From positions 90 through 64,089 of the forward strand of contig JANXYG010000125.1 in the NCBI GenBank assembly GCA_025350245.1: a stretch of DNA of 64,000 nt, in the 5' to 3' direction. Shown here piece after piece: positions 34,954-56,472 of this stretch (its first letter is position 1; each line of letters begins with the position of its first letter). A program made the translations under genes and the position numbers. The notes beneath the pieces are model-generated. The model was not told where the DNA came from and searched no databases. It saw only the letters and a list, made by a program, of their open reading frames with translations. The DNA comes from Betaproteobacteria bacterium (GTDB lineage: Bacteria; Pseudomonadota; Gammaproteobacteria; Burkholderiales; Ga0077523).

Positions 34954-34955
34954 CG

Positions 34956-36533
34956 ATGGCGAACCGGCTACTGGTCTGCATATCGGCACACGGGGTTTCG
35001 GTCGCGCGCTGGAACGGGAAGCTCTTCGCCACCACCCGTTTCGACAACGACGACGCGGGACTGGACGGCTTCACGCGGTATCTCAAAGCCGGCCGCTCGG
35101 CACCGGTGCATGTCATGGTCGACAGCACCGACGAGGATTACCGGGTCGAGACGCTGCCGCACACCGGGGGCCGTGACCGTCGCGAGCTGGTCCAGCGCAA
35201 GCTGAAGCAGATCTATCGAACCACCCCCTATTTCGCGGCGGTGGCGCAGCCGGTCGCCAAACCGCAGAACCGGCTCAAGGGCGCCCGGCGCGAAGACCGC
35301 TTCCTGTTCGCGGCCCTGACCGAGGCCGACCTGCTCGCGCCCTGGATCAACGCGATCACCGCCCGCGCTCTGCCAGTCGCCGGCGTGTTTCCGCTGCCCG
35401 CCGTCACCGCGGCGGTGGTGCCGCGGCTGAAGCTGAAGAGCGAGAATCTGCTGGTGATCTCGAAGGATGTCGCCGGCTTTCGGCAGACCTTCTTCAAGGA
35501 CGGCCGTTTCCGTCTCACCCGCCTGACCCAGGCGCGCGGCGGCGGCGACCGCACCATCGACTGGTCGTTCGCGGACGAAGTCCGGAACACCCGGCTGTAT
35601 CTCGACGCGCTCGGCGTCACTCTCGCCGACAACCTGGTCGATGTGCTCATTCTCGACCACGACAACTCCCTGGCGAGCCTGCACCAGGCGCTCGAGCACA
35701 AGCGCGGCAACCTGCAGTGTCAGCGCCTCGCCCGCGAAGAGCTGATACTGAAACTGAAGGTGCCCGATGCGGCCATCGCGGCGACCCCCGATGCCCTGCA
35801 TCTGCAGCTCCTGGGCAGCTACACCCCGGTCGAGAACCTGGCACCGGCCGCGTTGCTCGAGCCATACCGCCTGTTTCGCGCGCGCCGCTGGCTGTTTGCG
35901 GCTACGGCCGCGGTTGTCGCCATCGGCGGCATCTGGTTCGGCATCGACCTGCAACGCGTCCAGTCCATCGACGACGAATCGCGTCGGTTCTCGACCGACG
36001 CGGCGCGCTTCGAAGCGCAATATCGCGAACTGACACGCCAGTTCCCGCAGGCGCCGGCGAGTTCTGCAACGCTCAAGCTCACCGTCGAGGTGGCGGCGCG
36101 CATCCGTGACAACGTCCGGACCCCGGAGACCCTGTTCGCGGTGGTGAGCGACGCCCTGGCATCGTCGCCGACCGTCGCGGTGACCAGCCTCGCCTGGAAG
36201 TACGGCAAGTATCCCGATGCCGCAACGGCGTTCGCGCCGGCCTCGATCACCGGGACCGCCACCGATCGCGAGTGGCGCCAGGTCGGTCTGATGGTCGGCG
36301 AGATCACCCCGTTCGCCGGCGACTATCGCTCCGCCATTTCCAGCATCCGCGACTTCGCCCAGCGGCTGCGACAAAGTCCCCTCGTGGCCGACGTGAGGAT
36401 CATCAAGCTGCCGCTCGACGCCAGCTCGCGGCAGAGTCTGACCGGGAGCACGGCGACCGCGACCGAACAGCGACGCAGCGCGCTGTTCGAGATCGCCATC
36501 ACCTACAAGCCGCAACCGGGGCTGCCCGCATGA
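34956..36533 (+). CDS. bitopic assembly protein with GspL / PilM-PilN-fusion (MshI-like) architecture
   Basis: The 525-aa product has a ~310-aa cytoplasmic domain, one TM (WLFAATAAVVAIGGIWFGIDL) and a ~190-aa periplasmic domain. The call is by position and topology only. Confidence 0.5.
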   Translation: MANRLLVCISAHGVSVARWNGKLFATTRFDNDDAGLDGFTRYLKAGRSAPVHVMVDSTDEDYRVETLPHTGGRDRRELVQRKLKQIYRTTPYFAAVAQPVAKPQNRLKGARREDRFLFAALTEADLLAPWINAITARALPVAGVFPLPAVTAAVVPRLKLKSENLLVISKDVAGFRQTFFKDGRFRLTRLTQARGGGDRTIDWSFADEVRNTRLYLDALGVTLADNLVDVLILDHDNSLASLHQALEHKRGNLQCQRLAREELILKLKVPDAAIAATPDALHLQLLGSYTPVENLAPAALLEPYRLFRARRWLFAATAAVVAIGGIWFGIDLQRVQSIDDESRRFSTDAARFEAQYRELTRQFPQAPASSATLKLTVEVAARIRDNVRTPETLFAVVSDALASSPTVAVTSLAWKYGKYPDAATAFAPASITGTATDREWRQVGLMVGEITPFAGDYRSAISSIRDFAQRLRQSPLVADVRIIKLPLDASSRQSLTGSTATATEQRRSALFEIAITYKPQPGLPA

Positions 36534-37150
36534 AGACCGGCCCGCAAAACGTGTGGTCGCTGGTGGGGCCGGCGCTGGTCCTGGTCATTGCCGCCGCGCT
36601 CACGCTGATGGCGATTTGGTACGCCGAAGGGCTGGTCGCAAACCGCCAGCAGTTGCGCGACACCGCCCAGCGACAACGCGTCGATGCGGATAAGAAGCAC
36701 GCCAATGCCGGCGCCGAGAAGAAACTCATAACGGACTATCTCGCCCCGTACTCGGCGTTGCAGGACGCCGGGTTCGTCGGTGGCGAGCAACGCATCGACT
36801 GGGTCGACAGCCTGCGTACCGCCAACCGCGCGGCCGGCCTGTTCGGGGTCAACTACGATATCGGCCAGCAGGAAGCCTATCCGCTGGCGAGGGATCTGGG
36901 CGCCGGCGATCTGCCGCTCAAGCAGTCACCGATGAAGCTCACCCTGCCGCTGCTCCACGAGGGCGACCTGATGGCGTTCTTCCGCAGCCTTGCCGCGCAG
37001 CGCGCCGGCCTGTTCATGCTCAACGGCTGCAACCTGAGGCGCACCGGCATCGTCCCGCCCAGCGGAACCCAGGCAAACCTCACCGCCGAGTGCGAGGTCG
37101 CCTGGATCACCGTCGACGATACCCAGGCGAAAGCGGGACAACGGCCATGA
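36530..37150 (+). CDS. bitopic protein in the PilO/GspM/MshJ slot
   Basis: The 206-aa product has ATGA coupling at both ends. It has an N-terminal TM (LVGPALVLVIAAALTLMAIW) and a periplasmic domain. No family motif was recognised. Confidence 0.5.
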   Translation: MKTGPQNVWSLVGPALVLVIAAALTLMAIWYAEGLVANRQQLRDTAQRQRVDADKKHANAGAEKKLITDYLAPYSALQDAGFVGGEQRIDWVDSLRTANRAAGLFGVNYDIGQQEAYPLARDLGAGDLPLKQSPMKLTLPLLHEGDLMAFFRSLAAQRAGLFMLNGCNLRRTGIVPPSGTQANLTAECEVAWITVDDTQAKAGQRP

Positions 37151-37809
37151 CGATCAGGATGCCGGCCGTGCCGGCGCTGCTGCTGGTTCTGCTGTCGGGG
37201 TCCACACTCGCCGAAGACCCCCTCGGGCGTCTGTTCTTCACGCCGGCCCAGCGCGTAGAACTCGACCGCGAACGCGCCGCCGCGGCCACCAACGCGTCGC
37301 GACCGGCGGCGGTGCAGGCCCAGCCGAAGGCACCCCCACCGAAGATGGTGACCCTGAACGGTATCGTGCGCCGCAGCGACGGCGAAACCACGGTGTGGGT
37401 GAACAACAAGCCTCTGCACGAGCGCTTCGGCGATGCCGAGATCGATGCCGGGTCCATCGCCCGCGAGGGCGTCGGCATCAATCTCCCGGCTTCGGGCAAA
37501 CAGGTGCGCCTCAAGGTCGGACAGACGGTCGATGCCACCAGTGGCAGGGTGGCGGAAAGCTATGACCACCGGGCGCCGCAACCGCCGTCGACCAGGGACG
37601 CCGAAACCGCGGCGCAGGAGGCGAAAGCCGTCGCCGCCGACACGACCGCCAGGGCCGAAACCGATGCCAGGCGGCGTGAAGCCATCCGCAGCCGGCGTGA
37701 ACGCCAGCGCGCCGAGCCCCAGGTTCTCTTCGAGACCGAACCACCGGCGGGGGCCCCCGCGCCTGGCACCACCACCGTCACCACCATCACGAATGACGCG
37801 GCACGCTGA
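37147..37809 (+). CDS. secreted periplasmic protein in the PilP/MshK slot
   Basis: The 220-aa product has a signal peptide (MPAVPALLLVLLSGSTLA). It has a beta-rich core (LNGIVRRSDGETTVWVNNK) and an Arg/Glu-rich tail. Confidence 0.45.
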   Translation: MTIRMPAVPALLLVLLSGSTLAEDPLGRLFFTPAQRVELDRERAAAATNASRPAAVQAQPKAPPPKMVTLNGIVRRSDGETTVWVNNKPLHERFGDAEIDAGSIAREGVGINLPASGKQVRLKVGQTVDATSGRVAESYDHRAPQPPSTRDAETAAQEAKAVAADTTARAETDARRREAIRSRRERQRAEPQVLFETEPPAGAPAPGTTTVTTITNDAAR

Positions 37810-39256
37810 CGGGTTTCCCGCACGCGAGCGCGGCGTCGTCGTGCTGCTGATGCTGGTGCTGGGGGCGCTCGTGGGCGTGCTGTTCTTCACCGGGGTCCTC
37901 GGCGGCGGACCCACCACCAGCGAGCGCGATCTCATCACGCGCGCCGCACTCGCCAAGGCGAAGACCGCACTGATCGACTATGCGGTCACCTATATGGACA
38001 CGCATCCCAACATGCCGCCCGGCTTCCTGCCTTGCCCCGAAATCGACGGCAGCCTGCGTGAAGGATCGCCGGCCCTGGGCGGCTGCAACAACGTCGGCGA
38101 GAACGCGATCGGGCGCCTGCCCTGGTACACGCTCGGCATCGAACCGTTGCGGGACGGCTACGGCGAATGTCTCTGGTACGCCGTATCAGGCAACTACAAG
38201 AACGACCCCGCGCCGTTGCTGCTCAACTGGAACTCCAACGGGACCCTGCGCGCCTTCCTCGCGGTCCCGGTAGGCGGAACCCCGCCCCCGCTCGACAACA
38301 ACGTGCTGCAACGCGCCGTCGCCGTGATCATCGCGCCCGGACCGGCGCTTGGTACCCAGACACGTAACATGGCGACCGTGAATCCAGCGCCAGATCTGTG
38401 TCGCGGCAACCGCATCGCGGCGAACTATCTGGAAACCAGCAACAGCGTCAACAATGCGGCCATGGCGACGATCGGCGAGGCCAGCTTCATTTCCGGCGTG
38501 CCGACCGCGGCCTTCAACGACCGGCTTATCACCATCACCGCGGGCGAGATCTGGGCGGCGATCCTGCGGCGGCCGGATTTCCAGGCCCGGCTGCGGCTTC
38601 TCACCCAGAGGGTGGCCGAGTGCATCGCGTATTACCCGCAGACCGGCGCCACCGGCAATGCCAACGATCGCCGGCTGCCCTGGGCATCGAACCCCGGTTA
38701 CTTCGATCGCGAGCCGATCTACTACAGCGATGACCTCTCGCGCACGCTGGCGGGCCGGGCGCCGTACTCGGTCAGTGTTTCGAACGTGGACATCGGCCGC
38801 ACCACGTGGGGTACCAGCACGACCCTGCTGGGTGAAAACGGTGTCGCCAGCGGCAAGTGCCCCACGGGTGCCGCGGGCTGGAACACGATGATCAACAACT
38901 GGTGGAATCACTGGCGCGATCATGTGTTCTACGCGGTGAGCCGCAACTTCGCACCGAACGGACAGGCGTCCAACACCGGGTGTTCGCCGAGCACCAACTG
39001 CATCACCGTCGACGGCGTCGGACCGTACGCGGGCGTGGTGATGTTCGCCGGGGAGATCCTGCCGGCAGTGACGCCGAACCAGACCCGGTTCTCGGATTCA
39101 TTGAAGTTCAACTTCGCGTCCTATCTTGAGGCGCGCAACAAGAGCGCCAATGCCGCCGGCAACAACGACTACCAGACGTCGGCGACCGCGGCGCCGCCGT
39201 TCAACGACATTCTCTACTGCATTAACGTGACGCTGGCGGTAGCTGCGTGCCCATGA
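37793..39256 (+). CDS. large (487 aa) pilin-like protein with non-canonical N-terminus (GspK/PilX-like)
   Basis: The N-terminus RERGVVVLLMLVLGALVGVLF has a hydrophobic helix but no Phe+1/Glu+5. Several motifs are shared with the downstream prepilin (LPCP, YAVSG). Confidence 0.55.
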   Translation: MTRHADGFPARERGVVVLLMLVLGALVGVLFFTGVLGGGPTTSERDLITRAALAKAKTALIDYAVTYMDTHPNMPPGFLPCPEIDGSLREGSPALGGCNNVGENAIGRLPWYTLGIEPLRDGYGECLWYAVSGNYKNDPAPLLLNWNSNGTLRAFLAVPVGGTPPPLDNNVLQRAVAVIIAPGPALGTQTRNMATVNPAPDLCRGNRIAANYLETSNSVNNAAMATIGEASFISGVPTAAFNDRLITITAGEIWAAILRRPDFQARLRLLTQRVAECIAYYPQTGATGNANDRRLPWASNPGYFDREPIYYSDDLSRTLAGRAPYSVSVSNVDIGRTTWGTSTTLLGENGVASGKCPTGAAGWNTMINNWWNHWRDHVFYAVSRNFAPNGQASNTGCSPSTNCITVDGVGPYAGVVMFAGEILPAVTPNQTRFSDSLKFNFASYLEARNKSANAAGNNDYQTSATAAPPFNDILYCINVTLAVAACP

Positions 39257-40029
39257 TGGTCTCGCGGCGCCGGCGCGATGCCGGCTTTTCCCTGATCGAG
39301 CTGGCCATCGGCCTGGTGATCGTCGCGACCCTGTTGTCGAGTCTGCTGGTACCCCTGGTCACGCAGCTCGACCAGAAGCGCACCGCCGAAACCCAGCGCC
39401 TGCTGGAGCAGGCACGCGAAGCGCTGATCGGCTTCGCCGCGGCCAACAACCGCCTGCCCTGCCCGGCGACCGACGCGCCCGGCGCCACCGGCAACGAGAG
39501 CTTTGCCGCCGGGGGCTCCGCCACCACTGGCGCATGCTTGGCGGCGACCGGCCCCCTGCCCGGGGTAACGCTGGGCCTGTCGCCGCTGGATGCGCAGGGA
39601 TTCTATGTCGATGCCTTCGCCAGCGACCGCAATCGCATTCGCTACGCGGTGTCCGGCCAGATGGTGAACGGCGTCACCAACCCCTTCACCCGCATCAACG
39701 GGATGAAGAACGCGACGATGACTGCCATTGCAGCATCCAGCAGCCTGCTGTTCGTGTGCAGCGCGACGCCGGCGGCATCGAACTGCGGCACGGCGACCGC
39801 GCTCGCCAACGGCACCGCCATCGCGGTCGTCTTCTCGCCCGGAAAGAACGCGATCCTCAATGCGCCCAGCGCCGACGAGCTGGAGAACACCGACACCGAC
39901 AACGTGTTCGTGAGCCGGCCCTATTCCGACCGGACCGGAGGGGCGAGCACCGTGTTCGACGATCAGATGCTCTGGTTGTCACCGGCGCCGCTGTTCAGCC
40001 GCCTGCTCAGCGCCGGCGCGCTCCCCTGA
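39253..40029 (+). CDS. prepilin-type protein (minor pilin/pseudopilin)
   Basis: It has the class III signal RRRRDAG|FSLIELAIGLVIVATLL. An ATGA overlap joins it to the upstream gene (ATG 39253). Confidence 0.85.
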   Translation: MMVSRRRRDAGFSLIELAIGLVIVATLLSSLLVPLVTQLDQKRTAETQRLLEQAREALIGFAAANNRLPCPATDAPGATGNESFAAGGSATTGACLAATGPLPGVTLGLSPLDAQGFYVDAFASDRNRIRYAVSGQMVNGVTNPFTRINGMKNATMTAIAASSSLLFVCSATPAASNCGTATALANGTAIAVVFSPGKNAILNAPSADELENTDTDNVFVSRPYSDRTGGASTVFDDQMLWLSPAPLFSRLLSAGALP

Positions 40030-40116: not shown

Positions 40117-41844
40117 TCACGCGGCATCGGAAATCGCGGGCGCAAGGGTCCCGGGGCGCAAGGTGAAACAGACCTCACCGGCAAGGTTCGATGACAGTTC
40201 CAGCACGTAGCCCAGTTCGGCGGCGTGACGCGCGCTCTGGTACAACCCGACCCCCAAACCATCGTCCGATGCTACCGGCGCCCGGAACAGCTCGCGCGCC
40301 AGAGACGCCGAAATGGCCTCGCCGCCATCGGTGATCGAAAATCCGACACCTTCGCCATCGTGAAGCCAGGCCGCACGCACCGACGCGGTCTCGCCGCGAC
40401 GACGTTTCGCCAACGCATTCTGGAGCAGGTTGTCGGCGACGCTGTCGAACAGGTCGCCAGGGACCAGGGCCACCGCCTGAACCTCGCCGATGCCATCGAA
40501 CTCGACACCCTCGTGGGCGTATTGCTGGGCGAGCGCCCGCCACCAGTCGGCCGCGTTCACCATGCCGACCGGCCCGGAACGGTGGGCATCGAGCTTGTCG
40601 AGCGTACTCTGGAGCCGCTGGACGATCTGCGGCAATTGCCGCCGGATGAGTCGCAGCAATGCATCGGCGTCATCGCTACTGCTGTTCGCCGCCGCGGCAC
40701 AAAGCGAGCGCAACGATTGCAACAGGTTCTTGACGTCGTGCGTGAGGCGCGATCCGGTTTCGTAGATCGCCTGCAGATAGTCGGTCTGGCGCTGCGCCTG
40801 TTCGCGTACCTTCGCGTCGTGGTAGTCGCCGAGCAGGCGCGCCAGCAGACGCATGTGCAGCAGCAGCGCCGGTGTCGGCCGCCAGCGCGTGTAGAGGCGC
40901 AGATCCAGCCCGCCGAACGCGAAATGCGTGTCGAACGGCGAGACGATCCCGACCAGCCCCTCGCGGTTCGCAGCCGACCATTCGACCCCCACGAGCCATG
41001 GCAGCTCGAGCATGTCGCGCACTGCCCGCGCCACGAACTGGTACGGGTCGGCCTCGCGCTCGGCGAGGTTGGCCAGCCGGTGCATCCAGCGCTCGAACGG
41101 CATGCCAAGGCTGAGAAAGTAGCGCGACAACACCTGTCCGATGCCGGCAAAACCGCCACGCGGGTCCCAGAGCCACGACAGGATGAGCATGATGGCAGCG
41201 ATCGCCGTCACGGTCTTCACCAGCGCGACGGGATAGTCGTTGTGCGTCACCTGCTGCACGAACACCGTGCCCAGCACCAGCACCACCGCCAGCAGGAACA
41301 GCAGCACGCTGTAGACCAGATCGATGGCGTAGCGGGGCTGCGCGTGCCGCTCGCTCGTGCCCAGAAACGGGATCACGATCAGCGGCAACAGCAGACCATG
41401 CCGCAGAACCACCAGCGCCGCACTGGCAACCGACGCCTTGCCGAACAGCCCGGGGACGACCCAGGCGAGCAGTGCGGCGAGGAGATAAAGCGCAGCGAGC
41501 AACGATGCCATGCGCTCTCGCCGCGGGCCCAGCGCCGGCACGTTGCCCCCGATCAGCGAGAACAGCACCGCGAGCCAGAGGCCGAGCAGCCACCAACTGC
41601 TCCACCACACCAGCACGGCGCTCCCGGCAACCACCAGCAACGCTCGACGGGGCACCAGTTGCTGCGCGCCCTGCCACACCGGTTGCCAGAGCAGGAACAG
41701 GCCGAAGTGCGCAAGCAGCAAGGCCCGGGACGCGCCACTGCCGAGATCCAGCAGCAGCGCAAGATGCAGGGCGAGCAGCATGAGCCCGAGCGTGACGTTC
41801 TGCCGCGCCCACAGCGAGCGCGGGCGGATCGCGGGCGGGGTCAT
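40117..41844 (-). CDS. multi-TM sensor histidine kinase (PilS-like topology)
   Basis: It has roughly 9-10 N-terminal TM helices, an H-box SRLTHDVKNLLQSL, an N-box DNLLQNALAK and G-boxes ITDGGEAI / GLGVGLY. The start is trimmed to ATG 41844 because the ORF extension is repeat DNA. Confidence 0.85.
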   Translation of the reverse strand: MTPPAIRPRSLWARQNVTLGLMLLALHLALLLDLGSGASRALLLAHFGLFLLWQPVWQGAQQLVPRRALLVVAGSAVLVWWSSWWLLGLWLAVLFSLIGGNVPALGPRRERMASLLAALYLLAALLAWVVPGLFGKASVASAALVVLRHGLLLPLIVIPFLGTSERHAQPRYAIDLVYSVLLFLLAVVLVLGTVFVQQVTHNDYPVALVKTVTAIAAIMLILSWLWDPRGGFAGIGQVLSRYFLSLGMPFERWMHRLANLAEREADPYQFVARAVRDMLELPWLVGVEWSAANREGLVGIVSPFDTHFAFGGLDLRLYTRWRPTPALLLHMRLLARLLGDYHDAKVREQAQRQTDYLQAIYETGSRLTHDVKNLLQSLRSLCAAAANSSSDDADALLRLIRRQLPQIVQRLQSTLDKLDAHRSGPVGMVNAADWWRALAQQYAHEGVEFDGIGEVQAVALVPGDLFDSVADNLLQNALAKRRRGETASVRAAWLHDGEGVGFSITDGGEAISASLARELFRAPVASDDGLGVGLYQSARHAAELGYVLELSSNLAGEVCFTLRPGTLAPAISDAA

Positions 41845-41856
41845 GTCAGTGCCCGC

Positions 41857-41930
41857 CGGGGCCGTCCCAAGGACACCGCCCCCCTGGAGGAAGGCGAAGC
41901 GCAGCGCAGCCTGGGGGCGGGCGTCACCTC
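41857..41930. repeat. 3' two-thirds of the ~100-nt repeat unit
   Basis: GGGGCCGTCCCAAGGACACCGCCCCCCTGGAGGAAGGCGAAGCGCAGCGCAGCCTGGGGGCGGGCGTCACC aligns to the units at 12571 and 61067. Confidence 0.8.
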
Positions 41931-42017: not shown

Positions 42018-42785
42018 ATGAACAGCATCCGCAACGTCGCGGCGTTCGCCGTGCTCGAGGCCAGACGCACGCGGCTGCCCCTGATCGTGGCCGGCATCGG
42101 CGTCCTCGCGCTGGCGGCGAGCGGGTTCGTGCGCTCGCTCGCGATCACCGAATCGGTGCGGGTGCAGACCGGTTTTCTCGCCGCAATGCTGCGCATGATC
42201 GCCATGTTCCTGCTCTGTCTGCATGTCCCCGGCAGCATGCTGCGCGAGGCCCACGACAAGGGAACGGAACTGCTGCTTTCGGTGGACATCAGCCGGTTCG
42301 AATATCTCGCCGGCAAGGCGCTCGGATACAGCCTGGTGGCGACCGGTGTATGCGTCGCTCTCGCCGTGCCGGTGATGCTGGTGGCACCGCCAGTGTCGGC
42401 GCTCGCATGGACGATATCGCTCGTGCTCGAGTCATGGATCATCGTGGCGGCGAGCCTGTTCTGCGTGATTACGTTCAATCAGCTGATCCTCGCGGCGAGC
42501 ATCGTCTTCGCATTCTATCTGCTGGCCCGCGCCATGACCGCGATCGTCCTGGTGGCCGGGGCCGACATGTTGCAGGACGGGAGCTGGTCCCACGCCGCGA
42601 TGACCGCGATCGTGAAGCTGGTCGCGCTGGCGCTGCCGCCCCTGGACGCCTTCACCCGGTCCGCCTGGCTGATGGACGCGGCAGCGGGCTGGGATCGGTT
42701 GCCGATACTCGCGGCGCAGACCGGTCTGTACGTCGTGCTGCTACTCGCGGCCGCCTGCGTGGACCTCTATCGCCGCAATGGCTAG
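42018..42785 (+). CDS. ABC-2 family permease (NosY-like)
   Basis: This six-TM protein has the ABC-2 hallmark after TM1 (REAHDKGTELLLSVDISRFEYLAGKALG). ATG 42018 is preferred over TTG 41997. Confidence 0.7.
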   Translation: MNSIRNVAAFAVLEARRTRLPLIVAGIGVLALAASGFVRSLAITESVRVQTGFLAAMLRMIAMFLLCLHVPGSMLREAHDKGTELLLSVDISRFEYLAGKALGYSLVATGVCVALAVPVMLVAPPVSALAWTISLVLESWIIVAASLFCVITFNQLILAASIVFAFYLLARAMTAIVLVAGADMLQDGSWSHAAMTAIVKLVALALPPLDAFTRSAWLMDAAAGWDRLPILAAQTGLYVVLLLAAACVDLYRRNG

Positions 42786-43527
42786 CAGCCTGCTGCCGTT
42801 CCGTGACGAACGACCGATTGCCGCGGTGCCGCGCGCGCTGCTGGTGGTGTTTGCCCTGGCGCTGGGCGCCCAGGTGGCGTGGCGGGCGATGCAGCCAGCG
42901 CCTACGGCAGCAGCCGATCAGCTCACGATGCCTCCATCGAGCGCGGCGCTGCGGGTACTGGCGATCGGCGACCCGATCGCCCTGGGACAGTTGCTGACGT
43001 TGCGCCTGCAGGCGTTCGACAACCAGCCGGGAATCAGCGTCCCGTTCGCGGCGCTGGACTACAACCAGGTCGAGGCGTGGCTCGCCGCGATCCTCGATCT
43101 CGATCCGCGCACGGGCTATCCGCTGCTGATGGCGGCGCAACTCTATGGGCAGGTGTTCGGGCACCCGGACAAACAGCGGCAGATGTCGGAGTTCGTGCTG
43201 CGGCAGTTCCTGCACGACCCCGATCGTCGCTGGCAGCCGCTCGCGCATGTCGCCGTGATGGCCAAGCACCGGCTGCACGATCTGCCGCTGGCTCTGCGCT
43301 ACGCCAAGGCACTCGAGCAACACGCGCGCGGCCCCGGCGTGCCTGGCTGGGCACGGCAGATGCACATCTTCCTGCTCGAGGATCTGGGCGAGGTCAAGAC
43401 CGCCAAAGTGCTGCTCGGCGGCCTGCTCGCGAGCGGAGCGATCACCGACGAGCATGAGGCCAGGTTCCTCACGGCGCGTCTGCAAGCGCTGGAAAACGCC
43501 GAGAACTCGACAGCCCCGCCGAGATGA
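42778..43527 (+). CDS. hypothetical bitopic protein coupled to the ABC-2 permease
   Basis: The 249-aa product overlaps the upstream gene by 8 nt. It has an N-terminal TM (ALLVVFALALGAQVAW) and a helical periplasmic domain. The family was not recognised. Confidence 0.5.
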   Translation: MASSLLPFRDERPIAAVPRALLVVFALALGAQVAWRAMQPAPTAAADQLTMPPSSAALRVLAIGDPIALGQLLTLRLQAFDNQPGISVPFAALDYNQVEAWLAAILDLDPRTGYPLLMAAQLYGQVFGHPDKQRQMSEFVLRQFLHDPDRRWQPLAHVAVMAKHRLHDLPLALRYAKALEQHARGPGVPGWARQMHIFLLEDLGEVKTAKVLLGGLLASGAITDEHEARFLTARLQALENAENSTAPPR

Positions 43528-43597: not shown

Positions 43598-43613
43598 TGG
43601 CATGCATCTCGCA
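43598..43613 (+). promoter_or_regulatory. sigma-54 (-24/-12) type promoter candidate for the distal pilin gene
   Basis: TGGCAT-GCATC-TCGCA has exact GG-N10-GC spacing. It lies 47 nt upstream of GTG 43660. A sigma-54 activator is encoded in the locus. Confidence 0.4.
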
Positions 43614-43659: not shown

Positions 43660-44346
43660 GTGAATTCAAGACGCAACCAGGGCTTCACCCTGATCGAGAT
43701 CGCGATCGTGCTCGTGATCATCGGCCTGCTGCTCGGCGGCATCCTCAAGGGCCAGGAACTGATCACCAGTGCCCGCGTCCGCAATCTCATCTCGCAACAG
43801 GACGGCGTCAAGGCCGCGTTCTACGGCTTCCAGGACCGGTTCCGCGGCCTGCCCGGCGACTATAACCTGGCCACGACGAATATCCAGGGGACGACGGCGA
43901 ACGGGAATGGCGACGGTCAGATCGTGACGGCCACCGGCGGCGGCGGCACCGTAGAGCCGAATCTGGTTTGGGAACATCTCTCCAAGGCGGGTTTCGTGAA
44001 TGGCAATTACACCTACGCGGCGACGGCTTCGGCGCAGACCACACCCAACAATCCCTATGGGCAACAGGTGCAGCTCATCTGGGATGCCAGCTATGCGGTC
44101 CTGACCGGCGCGCCGCAGAACCCACGCCACAATCTCAAGACCGGTAACCAGATCCCGGTCGAGATCATCGCAGAGGTCGATCGCAAGGTGGACGACGGCC
44201 TGCCGGCTTCCGGCTCGTTCGTGTTCTCCGATTTCGCTGGAATCCAAGCGGCGTTGACCGGCTGTGCCAACATCGGTGCAACCACATCGAACTGGATCCT
44301 GGTCACCGGCGCCCAACAGAACTGCGGCGGCACCAGCCTGTTCTGA
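43660..44346 (+). CDS. type IV pilin-like protein (major subunit candidate)
   Basis: It has the class III signal SRRNQG|FTLIEIAIVLVIIGLLLGG and a GGAG 6 nt before GTG 43660. A C-terminal Cys pair (GCANIG...QQNCGG) is present, and an intrinsic terminator follows. Confidence 0.85.
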   Translation: MNSRRNQGFTLIEIAIVLVIIGLLLGGILKGQELITSARVRNLISQQDGVKAAFYGFQDRFRGLPGDYNLATTNIQGTTANGNGDGQIVTATGGGGTVEPNLVWEHLSKAGFVNGNYTYAATASAQTTPNNPYGQQVQLIWDASYAVLTGAPQNPRHNLKTGNQIPVEIIAEVDRKVDDGLPASGSFVFSDFAGIQAALTGCANIGATTSNWILVTGAQQNCGGTSLF

Positions 44347-44370: not shown

Positions 44371-44408
44371 CGGCGGCGAACCGGCTTCGGTTCGCCGCCG
44401 TCGTTTTG
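44371..44408 (+). terminator. intrinsic terminator after the pilin gene
   Basis: A 13-bp stem CGGCGGCGAACCG / CGGTTCGCCGCCG with loop GCTT is followed by TCGTTTTG. Confidence 0.75.
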
Positions 44409-44413: not shown

Positions 44414-46387
44414 TCACCCCTGCAGCAGTTTGATCTCGGCGGCCGCCAGGTCGGTCTCGCGACCCCGCAGCACGATGACATCGCCCTGTTCCAGTCGCGC
44501 GTCATCGCTAGGGGCCTGACCGCGCACGTTGTGACGACGGATCGCCGTGATCTCGGCGTGGATAGCCCCGAAGTCCAGTTCGCGCAGGCTCCGGCCGATG
44601 GCATTCGCGCCCTCTGGCAACAAGACCGAATGCAACCGGATCGGTTCGACGCCATCCTCGGCCGGGTTGGAGGCGTCGGTGATGCCACGAAAGAAACCGC
44701 GAAACAGGCTGTAGCGCTGCTCCCGGGTTTCGCGGATGCGGCGCAGGACCCGCGGCAGCGGCGTCCCGAGCAGCATCAACGCGTGCGAGGCGAGCATGAG
44801 GCTGCCCTCCATGACCTCGGCCACCACTTCGGCCGCACCGGCCTGCTTGAGACGGTCGATGTCGACATCATCGAGCGTGCGCACGATCACCGCCATGCCC
44901 GGGCGGATCTCGCGCACCACCCCGAGGATCCGCAGCGCCGAAGCGGTATCGGCATACGACACGACCACGGCCTTGGCGCGCATCAGGCCGGCCGCCACCA
45001 ACACCTCACGCCGGGCCGCGTCGCCGAACACCACCTGCTCGCCGGCGATCGCCGCCTCCCTGACCCGAACCGGATCGACATCGAGCGCGATGAACGGAAT
45101 CGATTCGGCCTCGAGGATGCGCGCGAGATTCTGGCCGCTACGCCCGTACCCGCAGATGATCACGTGGTCGGCGGCGCCCATCGTCTGGACGGCGATGTTG
45201 TGCAACGCCATGGCGCGCCGCATCCATTCGGAGCGCACCAGCTTGCGCACCACGCGCTCCGACTGCTGCACCAGCAGCGGCGACATCAGCATCGACAGCA
45301 CCAGGGCCGCGAGCGTGATCTGCAGCAGGTCATGCCGCACGATGCCGAGCTGACCGGTGAGCGACAGCAGGACGAAACCGAACTCGCCGGCACCCGCCAG
45401 CGACAACGCCGTGCGTAGCGCCGTGCCCGCGTCGGCGCGGAACAGACGCCCGAGGCCGAAGACGATGGCGGCCTTGAGCAGCAGCATCGCCAGCAGGATG
45501 GACACGACCGCGCCCGCATTCGCCAGCACCACGGAGCCGTCGAGCTGCATGCCGACGGTGATGAAGAACAGACCCAGCAGCACGTCGCGGAACGGCTTGA
45601 TGTCCTCCTCGACCTGATAGCGGTACTCGGTTTCGGAGATCAGCATGCCGGCGATGAAAGCGCCCAGCGCGAGCGATAGTCCGGCGAACTCGGTGATCGC
45701 CGCCAGCAGCAACGTGATCAAGAGCACGTTGAGCACGAACAGCTCGGACGACTTCTGCGCCGCCACGAGATGGAACCAGGGGCGCATCAAGCGCTGACCG
45801 AGTCCGAGCAGCAGCGCCAGCACCACGGCCGCCTTGAGGCCGGCAAAACCGAGTTCGCGCAGGATGTCGGGGGTCGGCGCGGCCAGCGTCGGCAGCAGGA
45901 TCAGCAGCGGCACCACAGCCAGATCCTGAAACAGCAGCACGCCCATGATGCTGCGGCCGTGCGGCGCATTGAGCTGGAGCTGTTCCGCCAGCATCTTGCC
46001 GAGAATCGCGGTGGACGACATCGCGATCGCGCCACCCAGGGCGACGCCGCCCTTGGCGCCGAGACCGAGCCACCACGCGCAGGCGGCGACAATCAGCAAC
46101 GTGCTCAGCACCTGCGCGGCGCCGAGCCCGAACACCAGGCGCCGCATCGTCAGCAGCTTGGGCAGGCTGAACTCGAGTCCGATCGAGAACATGAGGAACA
46201 CGACCCCGAACTCGCCGAGTTCACGAGTGCCGGCACCGTCGTCGACCCAGCCGAGCGCATTCGGTCCGATGGCGATGCCGACCGCCAGATAGCCGACCAG
46301 CGGCGGCAACCGCAGGCGTCGGCACAGCGCGACCACCACCACCGCCGCAGCCAGGAGAATCAATACCAGCGTGAGCGTGTGATGCAT
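44414..46387 (-). CDS. CPA2-family monovalent cation:proton antiporter with RCK domains (KefB/YbaL-like)
   Basis: It has about 12 TM segments, then TrkA-N (HVIICGYGRSG) and TrkA-C domains. The start is ATG 46387. Confidence 0.85.
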   Translation of the reverse strand: MHHTLTLVLILLAAAVVVVALCRRLRLPPLVGYLAVGIAIGPNALGWVDDGAGTRELGEFGVVFLMFSIGLEFSLPKLLTMRRLVFGLGAAQVLSTLLIVAACAWWLGLGAKGGVALGGAIAMSSTAILGKMLAEQLQLNAPHGRSIMGVLLFQDLAVVPLLILLPTLAAPTPDILRELGFAGLKAAVVLALLLGLGQRLMRPWFHLVAAQKSSELFVLNVLLITLLLAAITEFAGLSLALGAFIAGMLISETEYRYQVEEDIKPFRDVLLGLFFITVGMQLDGSVVLANAGAVVSILLAMLLLKAAIVFGLGRLFRADAGTALRTALSLAGAGEFGFVLLSLTGQLGIVRHDLLQITLAALVLSMLMSPLLVQQSERVVRKLVRSEWMRRAMALHNIAVQTMGAADHVIICGYGRSGQNLARILEAESIPFIALDVDPVRVREAAIAGEQVVFGDAARREVLVAAGLMRAKAVVVSYADTASALRILGVVREIRPGMAVIVRTLDDVDIDRLKQAGAAEVVAEVMEGSLMLASHALMLLGTPLPRVLRRIRETREQRYSLFRGFFRGITDASNPAEDGVEPIRLHSVLLPEGANAIGRSLRELDFGAIHAEITAIRRHNVRGQAPSDDARLEQGDVIVLRGRETDLAAAEIKLLQG

Positions 46388-46491
46388 CTTCGGGCGAACT
46401 TGCGAGAGCCACGATCGAGGGAGCGTTCGAATGTAGCACACGGTCCGCGGCAGTCACGGTGGCGGGATGCCCCTGCGCTATACTCGAAAAC

Positions 46492-47503
46492 ATGCACGCG
46501 GAACCGGAGATCGCTCGCGCAAACAGCCTTGGCAAGCTCACCCCCAGCGCCGCGATTTCGGTCGGGCGGCGGGTGCTCGACATCGAATCGCGCGCCGTCG
46601 CGATGCTGTCGCAACGGCTCGACCACAGCTTCGCCCGTGCGCTCGAGCTGCTGCTGGCATGCCGTGGCCGCGTGGTGGTGAGCGGCATCGGCAAGTCCGG
46701 CCATATCGCGGGCAAGATCGCCTCCACCCTCGCCAGCACCGGGACCCCGGCGTTCTTCATGCATCCCGCCGAGGCCAGTCACGGCGACCTCGGCATGATC
46801 ACTGCCGACGACGTGATGATCGCCCTCTCCAACTCCGGCGAAAGCAGCGAACTGCTCACCATCGTGCCGCTGGTGCGGCGGCGCGGCGGTGATCGCCATG
46901 ACCGGCAATGCCGGGTCGACCCTCGCGCGCGCGGCCGATGTTCACCTCGATGCCGGCGTGAGCGAGGAAGCCTGTCCGCTGGGTCTCGCCCCCACCGCCA
47001 GTACCACGGCGGCACTGGCGCTCGGCGATGCGCTCGCGGTCGCCGCGCTGGAGGCGCGCGGCTTCGGTGCTGAGGATTTTGCGCGCTCTCACCCCGGTGG
47101 AAACCTGGGCCGCAAACTGCTGACCCACGTCAGCGACGTCATGCGCGTGGGTGCCGCGATCCCGCAGGTGCGGGTCGATACCCCGGTCAGCGATGCCCTG
47201 GTCGAAATCTCCTGCAAAGGGCTGGGCATGAGTGCCGTATCGAGCGCGAGCGGCGTGCTGGCCGGCGTGCTTACCGACGGCGATCTGCGCCGCGCCATCG
47301 GCCGCAACGTCGACTTGCGCACGGCCGTGGTCGCCGACATCATGTCCTGCAATCCACGCACCATCGGTCCGGGCCGGCTTGCGGTCGAGGCGGTCGCGGA
47401 AATGGAACGTCATCGCATCAACGGGCTGCTGGTGGTCGATGCCGCGGGCGCTGTGGTCGGCGCGCTCAACATGCACGACCTGTTCGGCGCCAAGGTGATC
47501 TGA
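46492..47503 (+). pseudogene. kdsD: arabinose-5-phosphate isomerase KdsD, interrupted by a +1 frame change near 46876-46890
   Basis: The SIS domain (VVSGIGKSGHIAGKIASTLASTGTPAFFMHPAEASHGDLG) is in one frame. The continuation (VIAMTGN...ACPLGLAPTASTTA..., two CBS domains) is in the next frame. The junction lies in the run GCGGCGGCGCGGCGG. Confidence 0.8.
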
Positions 47504-47561
47504 TGACGCCCCCCCCCAATGGGTGGCCAGCGCCCTTGGGAACGGCTTGGCGGGCGGTGCG

Positions 47562-48113
47562 ATGACCGATCAAGGTCACGAAGCGCGCATCGAGTCGGCA
47601 CTGGCCAAGGCGCGGCGGGTGCGCATCGCGGTCTTCGACATCGACGGCGTGATGACCGATGGCACGCTGTTTCTCGATGATCAGGGCAACGAGAGCAAGG
47701 GCTTCAACTCGCTCGACGGCCACGGCCTGCGCATGCTCGCCCACACCGGCATCACGCTCGCCATCATCACCGGCCGCCGGTCGCGCTGTGTCGAATTGCG
47801 GGCCATGAATCTCGGCATCGCGCACGTGCACCAGGGCGTGGACGACAAGCTCGCGAGCTTCGACGAACTGCTGGGCCCGCTTGGTCTCGAGCGCGCCGAC
47901 GCCGCCTACATGGGCGACGACGTGGTCGATCTGCCGGTGATGCGCCGCTGCGGGCTTGCCGTGTCGGTGCCAGCCGCGCCGGAAATCGTGCGCCGGCATG
48001 CCGACATCGTCACCACGCGCAGCGCCGGACACGGCGCCGTGCGTGAGGCCTGCGAGTTCATCATGGCGGCGCAGGGCTCCCTCGACACCGAGCTCGAGCG
48101 CTACCTCCGATGA
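47562..48113 (+). CDS. kdsC: KDO 8-phosphate phosphatase
   Basis: It has the HAD motifs FDIDGVMTDG and GDDVVDLPVM. The start is ATG 47562. Confidence 0.9.
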   Translation: MTDQGHEARIESALAKARRVRIAVFDIDGVMTDGTLFLDDQGNESKGFNSLDGHGLRMLAHTGITLAIITGRRSRCVELRAMNLGIAHVHQGVDDKLASFDELLGPLGLERADAAYMGDDVVDLPVMRRCGLAVSVPAAPEIVRRHADIVTTRSAGHGAVREACEFIMAAQGSLDTELERYLR

Positions 48114-48724
48114 CGGACCGGCTGTTCAAGTGGTATCCGGTGCTGTTCCTGCTGGCACTCGCCGCGCTGACCCTCTGGCTCGACCAGAAGGTCCAGCCGC
48201 CGCAACCGGCACGCGACGGCAGCGCCCGGCACGACCCCGACTTCTACATCGACGACTTCGTGGCCCAGCGCATGAATCCGGATGGCACCCGCCGCTATGC
48301 CCTGAAGGGGCGCAAGCTGGTGCACTACCCGGACGACAGCAGCACCCAGGTGCAGACGCCGTCCTTCACCCACTTCGAAGCCGGTGCCGCGCCGGTGCTG
48401 GTCACCGCCAATCGCGCAGTCGTGTCGCGCAATGGCGAGAACGTCTATTTCGTCGGCGACGTGCACATCGATCGCGCCGCCTTCGCCGACCAGCAGGCGC
48501 TGGCCCTGCGCACCGAGCTGCTGCATGTGATTCCCGATCGCGACCTGGCCAAGACCGACAAGGCCGTGTTCATGACCCACGGCACCTCGACCGTGCGTTC
48601 GGAGGGCATGGAGTTCGACAACCGCGCCCGAACAGTGAAGCTTCTTTCGAAGGTCAAGGTGAACTATGCGTCCCCCGTCCGCTATGCATCCCCCGTCCGT
48701 CTGCCCACCACCCGCCGCAAATAG
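48110..48724 (+). CDS. lptC: LPS export protein LptC
   Basis: The 204-aa product has an N-terminal TM anchor (VLFLLALAALTLWL). It sits between kdsC and lptA with an ATGA overlap. Confidence 0.8.
   Translation: MTDRLFKWYPVLFLLALAALTLWLDQKVQPPQPARDGSARHDPDFYIDDFVAQRMNPDGTRRYALKGRKLVHYPDDSSTQVQTPSFTHFEAGAAPVLVTANRAVVSRNGENVYFVGDVHIDRAAFADQQALALRTELLHVIPDRDLAKTDKAVFMTHGTSTVRSEGMEFDNRARTVKLLSKVKVNYASPVRYASPVRLPTTRRK
48664..48699. repeat. 18-bp tandem duplication at the lptC/lptA junction
   Basis: CTATGCGTCCCCCGTCCG is followed by CTATGCATCCCCCGTCCG (one mismatch). The duplication encodes YASPVR twice in LptC and supplies two in-frame ATGs for lptA. Confidence 0.9.
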
Positions 48725-49337
48725 TCGGCGCGTGCTCGTGCTGTGCACGCTGCTCCTTTTCGGCGCGGGCGCTGCCCACGCCGAAAAGGGCGACCGCGAC
48801 AAGCCGGTGCAGATCGAGTCCGACCGCATGCTGATCGACGACGGGCGCAAGGAGTCGGTGTTCGAGGGCAACGTCGTGCTGACCCAGGGCACACTGCAGT
48901 TGCGGGGCGATCGTGTCGTCGTCCGCCAGGATGCCGAAGGCTTCCAGTACGGGACCGCTTATGGCAAACCAGCCACCTTCCGCCAGAAGCGCGAGGGCTA
49001 CGACGAGTACATCGAGGGCTTCGCCGACCGGCTCGAATACGACGGCCGCAAGGACCTGTTGCAGATGTTCGCCCTGGCCCGCATCACCAAGGGCACCGAC
49101 GAGGTGAGGGGTGACTACATCTCGTACAACGCGAAAACCGAGTTCTTCCAGGTGGTAGGCGGGGGCAAGCCCGCGGCGACCAGCGGCAACCCCGAAGGCC
49201 GGGTGCGCGCCATCATCCAGCCCAAGCCGAAACCGGGAGCCCCCGGCACGGCCACCGACCCGAATCCCGCCGGCCGGCCGGGCGCGAGCCTTACGCTGAA
49301 ACCGGCGCCTGCCATCGACCGCGTGCCGGACCGATGA
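48666..49337 (+). CDS. lptA: LPS transport periplasmic protein LptA
   Basis: It has a signal peptide ([16 protein letters not shown]) and an OstA-like domain ([14 protein letters not shown]). The alternative start is ATG 48684. Confidence 0.85.
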
Positions 49338-50104
49338 AGGCACCGGCGGACCAAGCCTCGGCCACGCGGCTGGCGCTGCCATCGAGCGAACTGCGGGCGA
49401 TGGGCCTCAAGAAACGCTACAAGGCGCGTACCGTGGTCAAGGATGTATCGCTCGACGTGAAGAGCGGCGAGGTGGTCGGCCTGCTCGGCCCGAACGGTGC
49501 CGGCAAGACCACCTGTTTCTACATGATCGTGGGCCTGGTGCCGGTGGACGACGGTGAAATCTTCCTCGACGCCGAGAATCTGTCGTCGATGCCGATCCAC
49601 AAACGCGCCCGCCGCGGCTTGGCCTACCTGCCGCAGGAGCCCTCGATCTTCCGCAAGCTGACCGTGGCCGAGAACGTGCGCGCGGTGCTGGAACTGAACG
49701 GCCTCAAGGAATCCGAAATCGCGACGAAACTGGATGCATTGCTGGTCGATCTGCACGTCGCGCATCTCAAGAACAGCCCCGCCATCAGCCTGTCCGGCGG
49801 GGAGCGGCGCCGGGTCGAGATCGCGCGGGCACTGGCGGGCGATCCGCGCTTCATCCTGCTCGACGAGCCGTTTGCCGGTGTCGACCCGATCGCCGTCATC
49901 GAGATCCAGCGGATCATTCGTTTTCTCAAGGAGCGGGGCATCGGCGTGTTGATCACCGACCACAATGTGAGAGAGACGCTCGGCATTTGCGACCGGGCCT
50001 ACATCATCAACGATGGGTCGGTACTTGCCTGCGGCCATCCAGAGGAAATTGTCTATAATGAAGCGGTGCGAAAAGTCTATCTCGGCGAGAATTTCCGCCT
50101 GTGA
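49334..50104 (+). CDS. lptB: LPS export ABC ATPase LptB
   Basis: It has Walker [10 protein letters not shown], signature LSGGERRR and Walker [13 protein letters not shown]. Confidence 0.9.
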
Positions 50105-50210
50105 TTTCCGGTCTGCGATGCTGGTCGCGCCGGCCGTTGCCGGTAGTGTTCCCCGCAGTGCCTGACATCTCGTTCGTCACCGGCTCGATCGGGTCCTCGC
50201 AGCAATTCCC

Positions 50211-51713
50211 ATGAAGCATTCCCTGCAGCTCAAGCTGTCGCAGCACCTCACGCTGACCCCGCAGTTGCAGCAGTCGATCCGGCTGCTGCAGCTATCGACG
50301 CTCGAACTCAATCAGGAGATCGAAGGCTTCCTGCAGGAAAATCCGCTGCTCGAGCGCGATGAAGAGGAAGGCGAGGAAACCCCGGCGGTGACCGGCACGC
50401 TGGCCGCCGACGCCGCACCGGAAGTCGTCGCCGACACCACTCCCGGCGCCAACGAAGCGCCCCCGGACGATCGCGACCCCCCACCCGAAGGCGCCGAGGC
50501 ACCCGAAGCCGCCGAGGTTCCCGATCGCGAAGTGTCCGACGATGCCGACTGGCTCGACGATGGCAGCTACGGCAGCGGCACCGGTGGCACCGATGGCGAA
50601 GACGGCGACTATCCCCAGCTTCCGGCAAGCAGCCCGAACCTGCGCGAACACCTGATGTGGCAGCTCAACATGCTCGGCCTGCCGCACCAGGACAAGCAGA
50701 TGGTCGCGATCCTCATCGATTCGCTCGATGACGACGGTTACATGAAGACCGACCTGGCGGAGCTCGCGGCGCTGCTACCGGAGGAGATCGATTGCGGCGA
50801 GGACGACCTGCTGGTCGCACTGCGCCACCTGCAGCAGATGGAACCACCCGGCATCGCGGCCAGAAATCTCGCCGAATGCCTCCAGCTCCAGCTCGAGGCA
50901 ATGCCGCCGTCGACGCCCTATCGCGCCGAAGGTATCACCGTGGTCAAGCTGCATCTCGACGCGCTGGCCGGGCGCGACTATATCCGTCTGAAAAAAGTCC
51001 TGCGCTGCAACGACAATATCCTGCGCGAAGTGCAGAAGCTCATCATCGGCCTCAATCCGCGGCCGGGCAGCGCTTTCTCGACCGAAGAGCCGCGCTATGT
51101 CGTACCCGATGTCGCGGTACGCAAGACCAAGGGCATGTGGGTGGTTTCGCTCAATCCCGACGCCATGCCCAAGCTGCGCATCAACCGCATGTACGCCGAC
51201 ATCCTGTCGCGCAACCGCGACGCCAGTTTCCAGCAGTTGTCCGGCCAGTTGCAGGAGGCCAAGTGGCTGATCAAGAACGTGCAGCAGCGGTTCGACACCA
51301 TCCTCCGGGTGTCGCAGTGCATCGTCAATCGGCAGCGGCACTTCTTCGAGCACGGCGAGGTTGCCATGCGCCCGCTGGTGCTGCGGGAGATCGCCGAAAT
51401 CCTCGGCTTGCACGAGTCGACGGTGTCACGCGTCACCACCCAGAAGTTCATGCTCACGCCGCGCGGCATCTTCGAACTCAAGTACTTCTTCGGCAGTCAT
51501 GTCACCACCGAAACCGGCGGTGCCTGCTCGGCGACGGCGATCCGCGCCCTGATCCGCCAGCTGGTGGGCGGGGAAGACACCAAGCGGCCGCTGTCCGACA
51601 GCCAGATCGCCGACATTCTCGGCAAGCAAGGCATCGTCGTGGCGCGGCGGACCATCGCCAAGTACCGCGAGTCGCTGCAAATCCTGCCGATCAACCTTCG
51701 AAAATCAATCTAG
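50211..51713 (+). CDS. rpoN: RNA polymerase sigma-54 factor
   Basis: It has the N-terminal Gln/Leu-rich region I, an acidic region II and the C-terminal RpoN box ARRTIAKYR. Confidence 0.95.
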   Translation: MKHSLQLKLSQHLTLTPQLQQSIRLLQLSTLELNQEIEGFLQENPLLERDEEEGEETPAVTGTLAADAAPEVVADTTPGANEAPPDDRDPPPEGAEAPEAAEVPDREVSDDADWLDDGSYGSGTGGTDGEDGDYPQLPASSPNLREHLMWQLNMLGLPHQDKQMVAILIDSLDDDGYMKTDLAELAALLPEEIDCGEDDLLVALRHLQQMEPPGIAARNLAECLQLQLEAMPPSTPYRAEGITVVKLHLDALAGRDYIRLKKVLRCNDNILREVQKLIIGLNPRPGSAFSTEEPRYVVPDVAVRKTKGMWVVSLNPDAMPKLRINRMYADILSRNRDASFQQLSGQLQEAKWLIKNVQQRFDTILRVSQCIVNRQRHFFEHGEVAMRPLVLREIAEILGLHESTVSRVTTQKFMLTPRGIFELKYFFGSHVTTETGGACSATAIRALIRQLVGGEDTKRPLSDSQIADILGKQGIVVARRTIAKYRESLQILPINLRKSI

Positions 51714-51741
51714 GGTGACGTCCCCCCCAAGGCTGCGCTGC
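51714..51741. repeat. 28-nt terminal fragment of the ~100-nt repeat (inverted orientation)
   Basis: The reverse complement GCAGCGCAGCCTTGGGGGGGACGTCACC matches GCAGCGCAGCCTGGGGGTGGACGTCACC at 12659-12686. Confidence 0.7.

Positions 51742-55237: not shown

Positions 55238-55251
<14 letters not shown>
54667..55251 (+). CDS. LON substrate-binding (LonN) domain protein
   Basis: The 194-aa product has IPVFPLDTVLFPGGVLPLKIFEQRYLDM, typical of the Lon N-terminal domain. Confidence 0.8.
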
Positions 55252-56304
<1,053 letters not shown>

Positions 56305-56311
<7 letters not shown>

Positions 56312-56472
56312 CCCATCGTGTCCGGTTCACCCTTGAAAGGGCCGGCCAGATCGGCACCCGGCAGCTCGACAGGTACCCGTTTCGCCACTGCTTCCAGCCG
56401 CGGCGGCCGGGGGTAATCCCGGACGGATTCCTGCCCGGGCGCGGGCGCAATGGCGAACGAGGGGCGGGTCAT
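56305..56472 (-). pseudogene. possible N-terminal remnant of a DUF427-family gene
   Basis: The short ORF contains ESVRDYPRPPRLE, which I recall as the DUF427 N-terminal signature (ESVWDYPRPP). It stops after ~55 aa, where mutY begins. Confidence 0.3.

Follow-up and report, generated by a model that had tools for sequence, protein, structure and literature searches.

Why does a locus for type IV filaments contain two halves of an ABC (ATP-binding cassette) transporter that are encoded far apart from each other? The locus in question lies in a stretch of 64,000 nucleotides from a betaproteobacterium (contig JANXYG010000125.1 of assembly GCA_025350245.1, positions 90 to 64,089; we refer to this whole stretch as the window). 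The first gene of the locus encodes an ABC ATPase (24667-25422). Near the other end is a gene for an ABC-2 permease (42018-42785), which is followed by a gene for a 249-residue bitopic protein (the partner) and then by the gene for the major prepilin. The original prediction, which was made from the DNA alone, offered two readings: either an ATPase-permease operon was split by an insertion, or the transporter belongs to the filament system, like the PilGHI transporter of Myxococcus xanthus. We consider it likely that the ATPase, the permease, and the partner, which has a TPR-like domain, form one NosFY-like complex (type V, ABC-2) and that this complex is a dedicated accessory of an MSH-like filament system.

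Within the window, no permease adjoins the ATPase, and 42018-42785 is the only unpaired ABC-2 permease, 16.6 kb away. The remaining ABC parts are all paired (the yadGH-like genes at 19690-21455(-), mlaFE at 22892-24525(-), and lptB), so the ATPase and the permease are two unpaired halves. On these points, and on the coordinates of the ATPase, we agree with the original prediction.

A family search with the permease gave 75 clusters from Beta- and Gammaproteobacteria. When we scanned one genome per species with an alignment of 10 permease sequences, we found relatives in 197 genomes. The counts for the permease side are based on 81 loci: L002, which is gammaproteobacterial, and the best 80 of the 197 relatives, which are all from metagenome-assembled genomes, mostly of Burkholderiales. 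The gene for the partner is directly after the permease gene in every locus with room for it (78/78). A pilin gene lies at most 4.5 kb downstream in 51 of 53 loci. Of 68 loci, 56 have the gene for a histidine kinase in divergent orientation upstream of the permease, and filament core genes are at most 10 kb upstream in 40 of 46 loci. In 9 further loci, a pilin or minor pilin is upstream of the permease instead; these are mostly of the Oxalobacteraceae and Desulfobulbaceae types, which have no two-component system.

For the ATPase, a scan of metagenomes with an alignment of the family found about 35 orthologues at 41% identity or above. Those with informative flanks are all in a filament locus, except for L113. 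ATPases of under 40% identity belong to other ABC families and show no linkage to the locus, and the other ABC ATPases that are near the locus in relatives are at most 36% identical to the window's ATPase. In about 24 loci, the ATPase heads the operon, in the order ATPase, response regulator (not always present), AAA_22, secretin, TPR, MshE, and T2SSF, and in the orthologues that we looked up, these are followed by a gene for a protein of about 520 residues. This ATPase-first arrangement recurs across ATPases that are 45-99% identical. Among the orthologues that we looked up, it is found in P0078 (83% identical) and in Duganella sp. PWIR1 and a JGI contig (61-63%); in Duganella, the genomic context is different and the response regulator is absent. 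In seven loci, the ATPase comes after the pilin instead, in the order kinase(-)-permease-partner-pilin-ATPase (L002, L032, L080, L100, L107, L118, and L141). In L002, the ATPase beside the pilin is 55% identical to the window's, and the partner is 56% identical. In L117 and L119, the ATPase is beside AAA_22 and a divergent secretin. Finally, there are two contiguous trios: ATPase-permease-partner in L064 and permease-partner-ATPase in L114.

Across many genomes, then, the three ABC genes co-occur and co-localise with filament genes, and in some genomes they are contiguous. It is their shared membership in the locus that is conserved, rather than a position side by side. The second of the two readings, in which the transporter belongs to the filament system, is strongly upheld by this linkage, which extends across about 200 species. 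The original prediction had also suggested looking for orthologues that are adjacent where the filament genes are absent. Orthologues of the ABC genes are conserved in filament loci, and L064 does show adjacency away from filament genes.

The first reading supposes that an unrelated housekeeping operon for the ATPase and the permease (and perhaps the partner), located between mlaF and kdsD, was split when the filament genes at 25.5-41.9 kb were inserted. It is plausible that the trio was ancestrally contiguous, since L064 and L114 hold the three genes side by side. In favour of this reading, L064 also lacks filament genes in the vicinity. There is also a repeat in the intergenic region between the kinase and the permease, at the right-hand end of the supposed insert, as had been reported. 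However, this repeat spans 41877-41930, not 41857-41930, and it does not mark a junction. It belongs to a dispersed family of palindromic elements that resemble REP (repetitive extragenic palindromic) elements, with the core CCCCC...GGGGGAAGGCGnAGCGCAGCGCAGCCTGGGGG. The window contains six other copies (12630-12685, 12717-12751, 12816-12857, 51714-51741(-), 61023-61062, and 61139-61175), and none of them is at the left junction (25.4-25.5 kb). A search for repeats across 23-47 kb found no pair that flanks the supposed insert. The REP-like element is at the same spot in L004, which is 94% identical, and is missing from more distant loci that keep synteny.

The arrangement of genes also argues against this insertion. 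The major pilin lies beyond the permease and the partner, so an insert at 25.5-41.9 kb would leave out part of the filament system. A 75-kb contig (Ga0453727_0000093; loci L168 and L169) whose ATPase is 65-67% identical has the same split layout. There, the ATPase and the permease are 15.9 kb apart, and the flanks are the same as in the window, with mlaF on one side and kef and kdsD on the other. In gammaproteobacterial loci and in Duganella, the ABC genes still go with the filament genes, even though the genomic contexts are unrelated and the gene orders differ, and only one informative ATPase orthologue is outside a filament locus. In the window, the filament locus, including all three ABC genes, is a single block between mlaF and kef/kdsD. 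We reject the split of an ancestral operon as it was stated (by the nature of the repeat, the position of the pilin, the recurring layout, and the synteny of the block), and we view it as very improbable that an unrelated operon was interrupted here.

The block as a whole is another matter. It is preceded by the minus-strand genes mlaFEDCB (the end of mlaF is near 24.5 kb) and followed (44414-51713) by a kef-type exchanger, kdsD, kdsC, lptC, lptA, lptB, and rpoN. The mla genes of E. coli directly adjoin its kdsD-lpt-rpoN region, so the filament block looks like an old insertion at the mla/kdsD site.

What kind of transporter is this? The ATPase has the expected motifs (Walker A GMNGAGKTT, signature LSKGMTQK, Walker B LLVLDEPT, and H-loop SHALAD), which are conserved in the alignment. 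When its profile was compared to proteins of known structure, the nearest relatives were the second nucleotide-binding domain of ABCA-family transporters and then NosF (E = 2e-51), which was the best bacterial match. The ATPase had been described as DrrA/CcmA-type. This is correct for the broad subclass, but not for the families themselves, as the scores are below the curated NCBIfam cut-offs for drrA (154 vs. 312 bits) and ccmA (85 vs. 132), and also for GldA (104 vs. about 402-403).

The permease scored 26.5 bits against ABC2_membrane_3 from Pfam, which is below the cut-off of 31.6. A comparison of its sequence profile to the PDB found no match at E ≤ 10, and NCBIfam gave no match for either the permease or the partner. 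The AlphaFold2 (AF2) model of the permease (pLDDT 90, pTM 0.88) has the fold of an ABC-2 permease with six transmembrane helices. An interfacial helix is at the N-terminus, and GTELLLS is a candidate for the coupling helix. When we compared this model to the PDB with Foldseek, NosY was the best match (E = 1e-5, TM-score 0.59-0.66), followed by ABCG transporters and CcmB. The sequence identity to NosY is 16-20%. The motif that had been quoted as the hallmark of the permease, GTELLLSVDISRFEYLAGK, is present, and R100, G106, and K107 are invariant across the family. Because the ATPase matches NosF and the permease matches NosY, both halves point to the same type V subclass.

The start of the partner overlaps the stop of the permease by 8 nucleotides (ATGGCTAG), which suggests that the two are translationally coupled. 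The coupling to a bitopic protein just upstream of the pilin gene (43660-44346) was described correctly. The partner has a single, N-terminal transmembrane helix (residues 19-38), and the remainder of its AF2 model (pLDDT 84) is an all-alpha, TPR-like solenoid. This TPR-like domain is probably periplasmic. The fold matches are to generic TPR proteins only (E ≥ 0.018), and there is no match in Pfam or NCBIfam, even at E ≤ 1. The family is sizeable, with 698 representatives when clustered at 50%. A search with the family's profile found no distant named relatives, and the members that we looked up were unnamed or were annotated as "hypothetical protein."

Another possibility is that the ATPase and the permease do not work together: each would pair with a component that is encoded elsewhere, and the shared locus would reflect co-regulation only. 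In the window, the two halves are 16.6 kb apart in different transcription units, and our view of this genome is limited to the window. However, in nine other loci, the ATPase is 0-4 kb from the permease and partner, and in two of these it is directly adjacent. Both halves have their best match in the same solved complex, and the window offers no other unpaired ABC partner for either. Their identities are congruent as well: across the ten loci that carry all three genes, the pairwise identities of the ATPase and the permease are correlated (r = 0.82, 45 pairs), as are those of the permease and the partner (r = 0.87). We find it scarcely credible that the two halves have separate partners.

Some of our observations weigh against a dedicated complex for the filament. 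That the ATPase and the permease form a physical complex is something we infer from their proximity in nine loci (the two contiguous trios and the seven loci in which the ATPase follows the pilin) and from their congruent divergence, and the correlation of their identities could reflect shared phylogeny alone. The trio in L064 is among housekeeping genes (metW, glpK, ptsI, and gshAB), and there is no filament gene within 3-9 kb, so the trio may function independently of a filament, or at any rate may be encoded away from one. The ATPase of L113 is 41% identical to the window's, and there is no filament gene on its 9.3-kb contig. In L031, L054, and L058, we found no filament core gene in the 7-8 kb upstream of the kinase-permease-partner-pilin block. 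Lastly, the orientation of the partner is indicated by just a weak positive-inside bias (2.7 vs. 1.4 lysines plus arginines).

In L031, L054, and L058, the block adjoins kdsD, and a homologue of the gene at 55241-56326 of the window lies upstream of it (at about 1-8200). As these loci illustrate, the assembly operon is not an obligatory neighbour of the tail module.

The closest parallel that we know of is in M. xanthus. There, pilA-pilG-pilH-pilI form one operon that encodes the pilin, an accessory factor, an ATPase, and a permease, and the ABC genes pilGHI are needed for pili and for S-motility (PMC3546991, PMC3724824, PMC5544727). What the original prediction said of PilGHI, namely that it is encoded in the pil cluster and is needed for type IV pili, agrees with the literature (PMC3546991, PMC3724824). 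PilG, PilH, and PilI (Wu et al. 1998, cited in PMC3724824 and PMC3546991) are MXAN_5782-5780. The mechanism of PilGHI is still undefined (PMC6060248).

In the window too, genes for an accessory protein, an ABC ATPase, and a permease (250 residues or so, if not more) belong to a type IV filament cluster that includes the major pilin, and both clusters include a sigma-54 two-component system. The differences are that pilGHI are in one contiguous operon in a cluster for type IVa pili, whereas the window's system is MSH-like, its ATPase is 16.6 kb off, and the order is permease-partner-pilin. We regard the resemblance as one of architecture and context. The pilins do not suggest a special link to Myxococcus: comparing the window's pilin to the PDB gave matches to the N-terminal helix only, the M. 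xanthus pilin was not among the sequence matches, and the match to the Myxococcus PilA model is weak (27 bits vs. a cut-off of 400).

In structure, the nearest relative is NosDFY(L), which is involved in the maturation of nitrous oxide reductase (PDB 7o0y, 7qba, and 7znq). The likeness consists of a NosY-like permease and a NosF-like ATPase, and in both systems an ABC-2 permease with six transmembrane helices has a dedicated partner. In NosDFY, the permease is a dimer and the dedicated partner is periplasmic (PMC8457098). That partner, NosD, is a beta-helix, whereas the window's partner is a membrane-anchored, all-alpha, TPR-like solenoid, so it is not a NosD. Also, NosF has a C-terminal extension (308 residues), which the window's ATPase (251 residues) lacks. 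Family searches found no nos genes in the locus.

A split ATPase gene is not unique to these loci. In Flavobacterium johnsoniae, GldA (Fjoh_1516) is encoded apart from the adjacent genes gldF and gldG (Fjoh_2722 and Fjoh_2721) (PMC9127263). GldA and GldF-GldG are also of the ABC-2 type and serve a surface machine, and the signature of GldA has the same SKG (LSKGYRQR vs. LSKGMTQK in the window). They are part of the gliding and type IX secretion apparatus of Bacteroidetes, though, and given its low score against NCBIfam's GldA, the window's ATPase is not a member of that family.

What might the complex do? The most likely function, which would be analogous to that of PilGHI, is that of a NosFY-like module that acts on the pilin or on filament biogenesis. 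We propose that (ATPase)2-(permease)2 would form in the inner membrane, with the partner anchored beside the transporter and its TPR-like domain in the periplasm. ATP hydrolysis would then drive a step in the handling of the pilin or in filament biogenesis. The complex might be a mechanotransducer that works by way of the partner, in the manner in which NosFY acts on NosD. Alternatively, it might be a transporter that moves the pilin or some other factor.

The main rival to an action on the pilin or in the periplasm is the export of a non-protein substrate for the filament, such as a lipid-linked glycan for modifying the pilin, a polysaccharide, or a small molecule. The type V/ABC-2 group includes many exporters of lipid-linked glycans, lipids, or drugs, and ABCG, ABCA, and Rv1218c are among the structural or profile matches of the window's transporter halves. 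PilGHI itself has been annotated as an "efflux ABC transporter" (PMC3546991). However, among the identified genes of the window and of the mapped loci (four genes of the window have no family), there is no gene for a glycosyltransferase or for polysaccharide synthesis, and the constant partner resembles a scaffold for protein interactions. Furthermore, the closest structural match, NosFY (2022 structures of NosDFY, PDB 7o0y and 7qba), is not known to move a substrate across the membrane. Overall, we think that a true exporter is unlikely.

A more specific version of our proposal is that the trio is a NosDFY-style mechanotransducer that exports nothing and is a second ATP-driven motor of the type IV filament machine. 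Cytoplasmic ATP hydrolysis would move the anchored periplasmic TPR protein, which might hand over, extract, or quality-control unusually large pilins. This is speculative, and we would sooner expect it to be wrong than right. If it were true, the same principle would explain the 25-year-old requirement for PilGHI in Myxococcus.

Type IV filament machines are usually described with a single family of cytoplasmic motor ATPases (PilB, PilT, GspE, or MshE). PilGHI is, to our knowledge, the one documented additional ABC transporter of type IV filaments, and it has lacked a mechanism since 1998. The loci described here indicate that a three-part ABC module is fixed in a widespread and little-studied family of MSH-like filaments, and the NosFY-like core with its TPR-like, anchored partner gives a structural handle on it. 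The role of an ABC transporter in making a pilus thus becomes testable, by both comparative and genetic approaches, in a second lineage, and the ATPase-headed operon occurs in cultured Duganella. These loci also imply that gene-neighbourhood pipelines that demand adjacency of the ATPase and the permease will miss split systems.

The features of the locus are listed in Table 1. Because the window is about 66% G+C, we called genes by third-position G+C bias along with family searches. A search of the 23-47 kb region against Rfam found no match.

Table 1. Features of the filament locus and its right-hand neighbour, in window coordinates.
Feature	Position	Strand	Evidence or comment
ABC ATPase, nucleotide-binding domain only, 251 residues	24667-25422	+	PF00005 E = 1e-23; gene 1 of the locus, divergent from mlaF
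Sigma-54-dependent response regulator (PilR/PrsR-like)	25530-26999	+	Response_reg, Sigma54_activat, and HTH_8; TIGR02915 331 bits, below cut-off of 502
AAA_22 ATPase (MshM/ExeA-like)	27040-28563	+	PF13401 E = 7e-26; TIGR03015 223 bits, below cut-off
Secretin, MshL-like	28634-30430	+	Secretin, Secretin_N_2, and STN; TIGR02519 (pilus_MshL) 224 bits, below cut-off of 250
TPR protein (MshN-like position)	30434-31954	+	TPR families
MshE-type assembly ATPase with c-di-GMP-binding N-terminus	31951-33708	+	T2SSE E = 4e-120, MshEN; start ATG at 31951
Platform protein (T2SSF/GspF/PilC family)	33751-34953	+	PF00482 E = 1e-45
Four conserved genes (about 527, 206, 220, and 493 residues)	34950-39256	+	Colinear orthologues in most loci
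Minor (pseudo)pilin	39247-40029	+	N_methyl E = 8.5e-6
Sensor histidine kinase (PrsK-like), divergent from the permease	40117-41844	-	HATPase_c; TIGR02916 E = 1.7e-11
REP-like dispersed repeat in the kinase/permease intergenic region	41877-41930	.	Six other copies elsewhere in the window
ABC-2 (type V) permease, NosY-like, six transmembrane helices	42018-42785	+	AF2 model, Foldseek
Bitopic partner, 249 residues, transmembrane helix and TPR-like solenoid	42778-43527	+	AF2 model
Sigma-54 type -24/-12 promoter of the pilin gene, TGGCATGCATCTCGCA	43598-43613	+	Near-consensus element
Major prepilin, 228 residues, leader MNSRRNQG/FTLIE (slash marks the cleavage site)	43660-44346	+	N_methyl E = 1e-7, TIGR02532; start GTG at 43660
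Intrinsic terminator that closes the locus	44371-44400	+	13-bp stem with 11 G-C pairs, T tail
kef-type exchanger, right flank of the block	44414-46441	-	

At the level of domains, the locus fits the MSH class of filaments, whose mandatory genes are given by Denise et al. 2019 (bioRxiv 10.1101/576694), and we would describe it as a divergent MSH variant. The domain-level equivalents are the MshE-type ATPase, T2SSF, the MshL-like secretin with Secretin_N_2, the MshM-like AAA_22 protein, the MshN-like TPR protein, and the pilins. The MshE-type ATPase also matches NF053729, which describes the c-di-GMP motif (63.9 bits, above the cut-off of 38). The variant differs from the MSH class in gene order and in the sub-threshold score of MshL. 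It also has a sigma-54 two-component system of its own, as well as the ABC trio, and there are four unmatched middle genes in place of recognisable MshI, MshJ, and MshK. These four genes (34950-39256) have no match in Pfam, even at E ≤ 1, and we presume that they encode components for assembly or alignment. They sit where the equivalents of PilM/N/O/P or of MshI/J/K would be expected.

A second, canonical cluster of the MSH-like kind stands back to back with the operon that the ATPase heads in L086 (Duganella sp. PWIR1, CM136922.1) and in L087. It comprises MshE, T2SSF, four N_methyl pilins, PilM_2, and a secretin with Secretin_N_2, so these cultured Oxalobacteraceae carry two paralogous filament systems next to each other. 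Their version of the ATPase-headed locus has no two-component system.

The expression of the locus may be modular. The ATPase would be made from the head of the long assembly operon, while the permease and the partner would have their own sigma-70-like promoter: in many loci, the region upstream of the permease contains a conserved, TATACT-like -10 box. We also considered a sigma-54 promoter upstream of the permease, but found one in 9 of 82 loci, which is about the background rate. Upstream of the first pilin, by contrast, 51 of 59 related loci (from among L004-L083) have an element like the sigma-54 -24/-12 one of the window, compared to 6.7% of background windows. This conserved element implies control of the pilin by the sigma-54 response regulator of the locus itself, in the manner of PilS/PilR, and that regulator presumably serves the pilin promoter in the window.

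There is a possible second -24/-12-like element, TTGGGCACTGCTTTGCC, between the ATPase and response regulator genes (about 25460-25480). This region is not conserved, as the gap between these two genes is only 8-47 nucleotides in L168 and L084, and the element is probably not significant. Like the transporter, the two-component system is divided between the ends of the locus: the regulator is the second gene at the head, and the kinase is on the opposite strand at the tail. Both proteins resemble PrsR and PrsK of PEP-CTERM/exosortase systems, with scores below the cut-offs.

The other genes around the permease and the partner vary. In the gammaproteobacterial locus L002, they are accompanied by genes for a NIDO-domain protein and for a protein with a guanylate/adenylate cyclase domain (8440-9234 and 11546-12958(-)). 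The window has one pilin gene after the partner, and in L001/L006 and L010 (11.7-15.9 kb), there are up to five pilin paralogues in a row.

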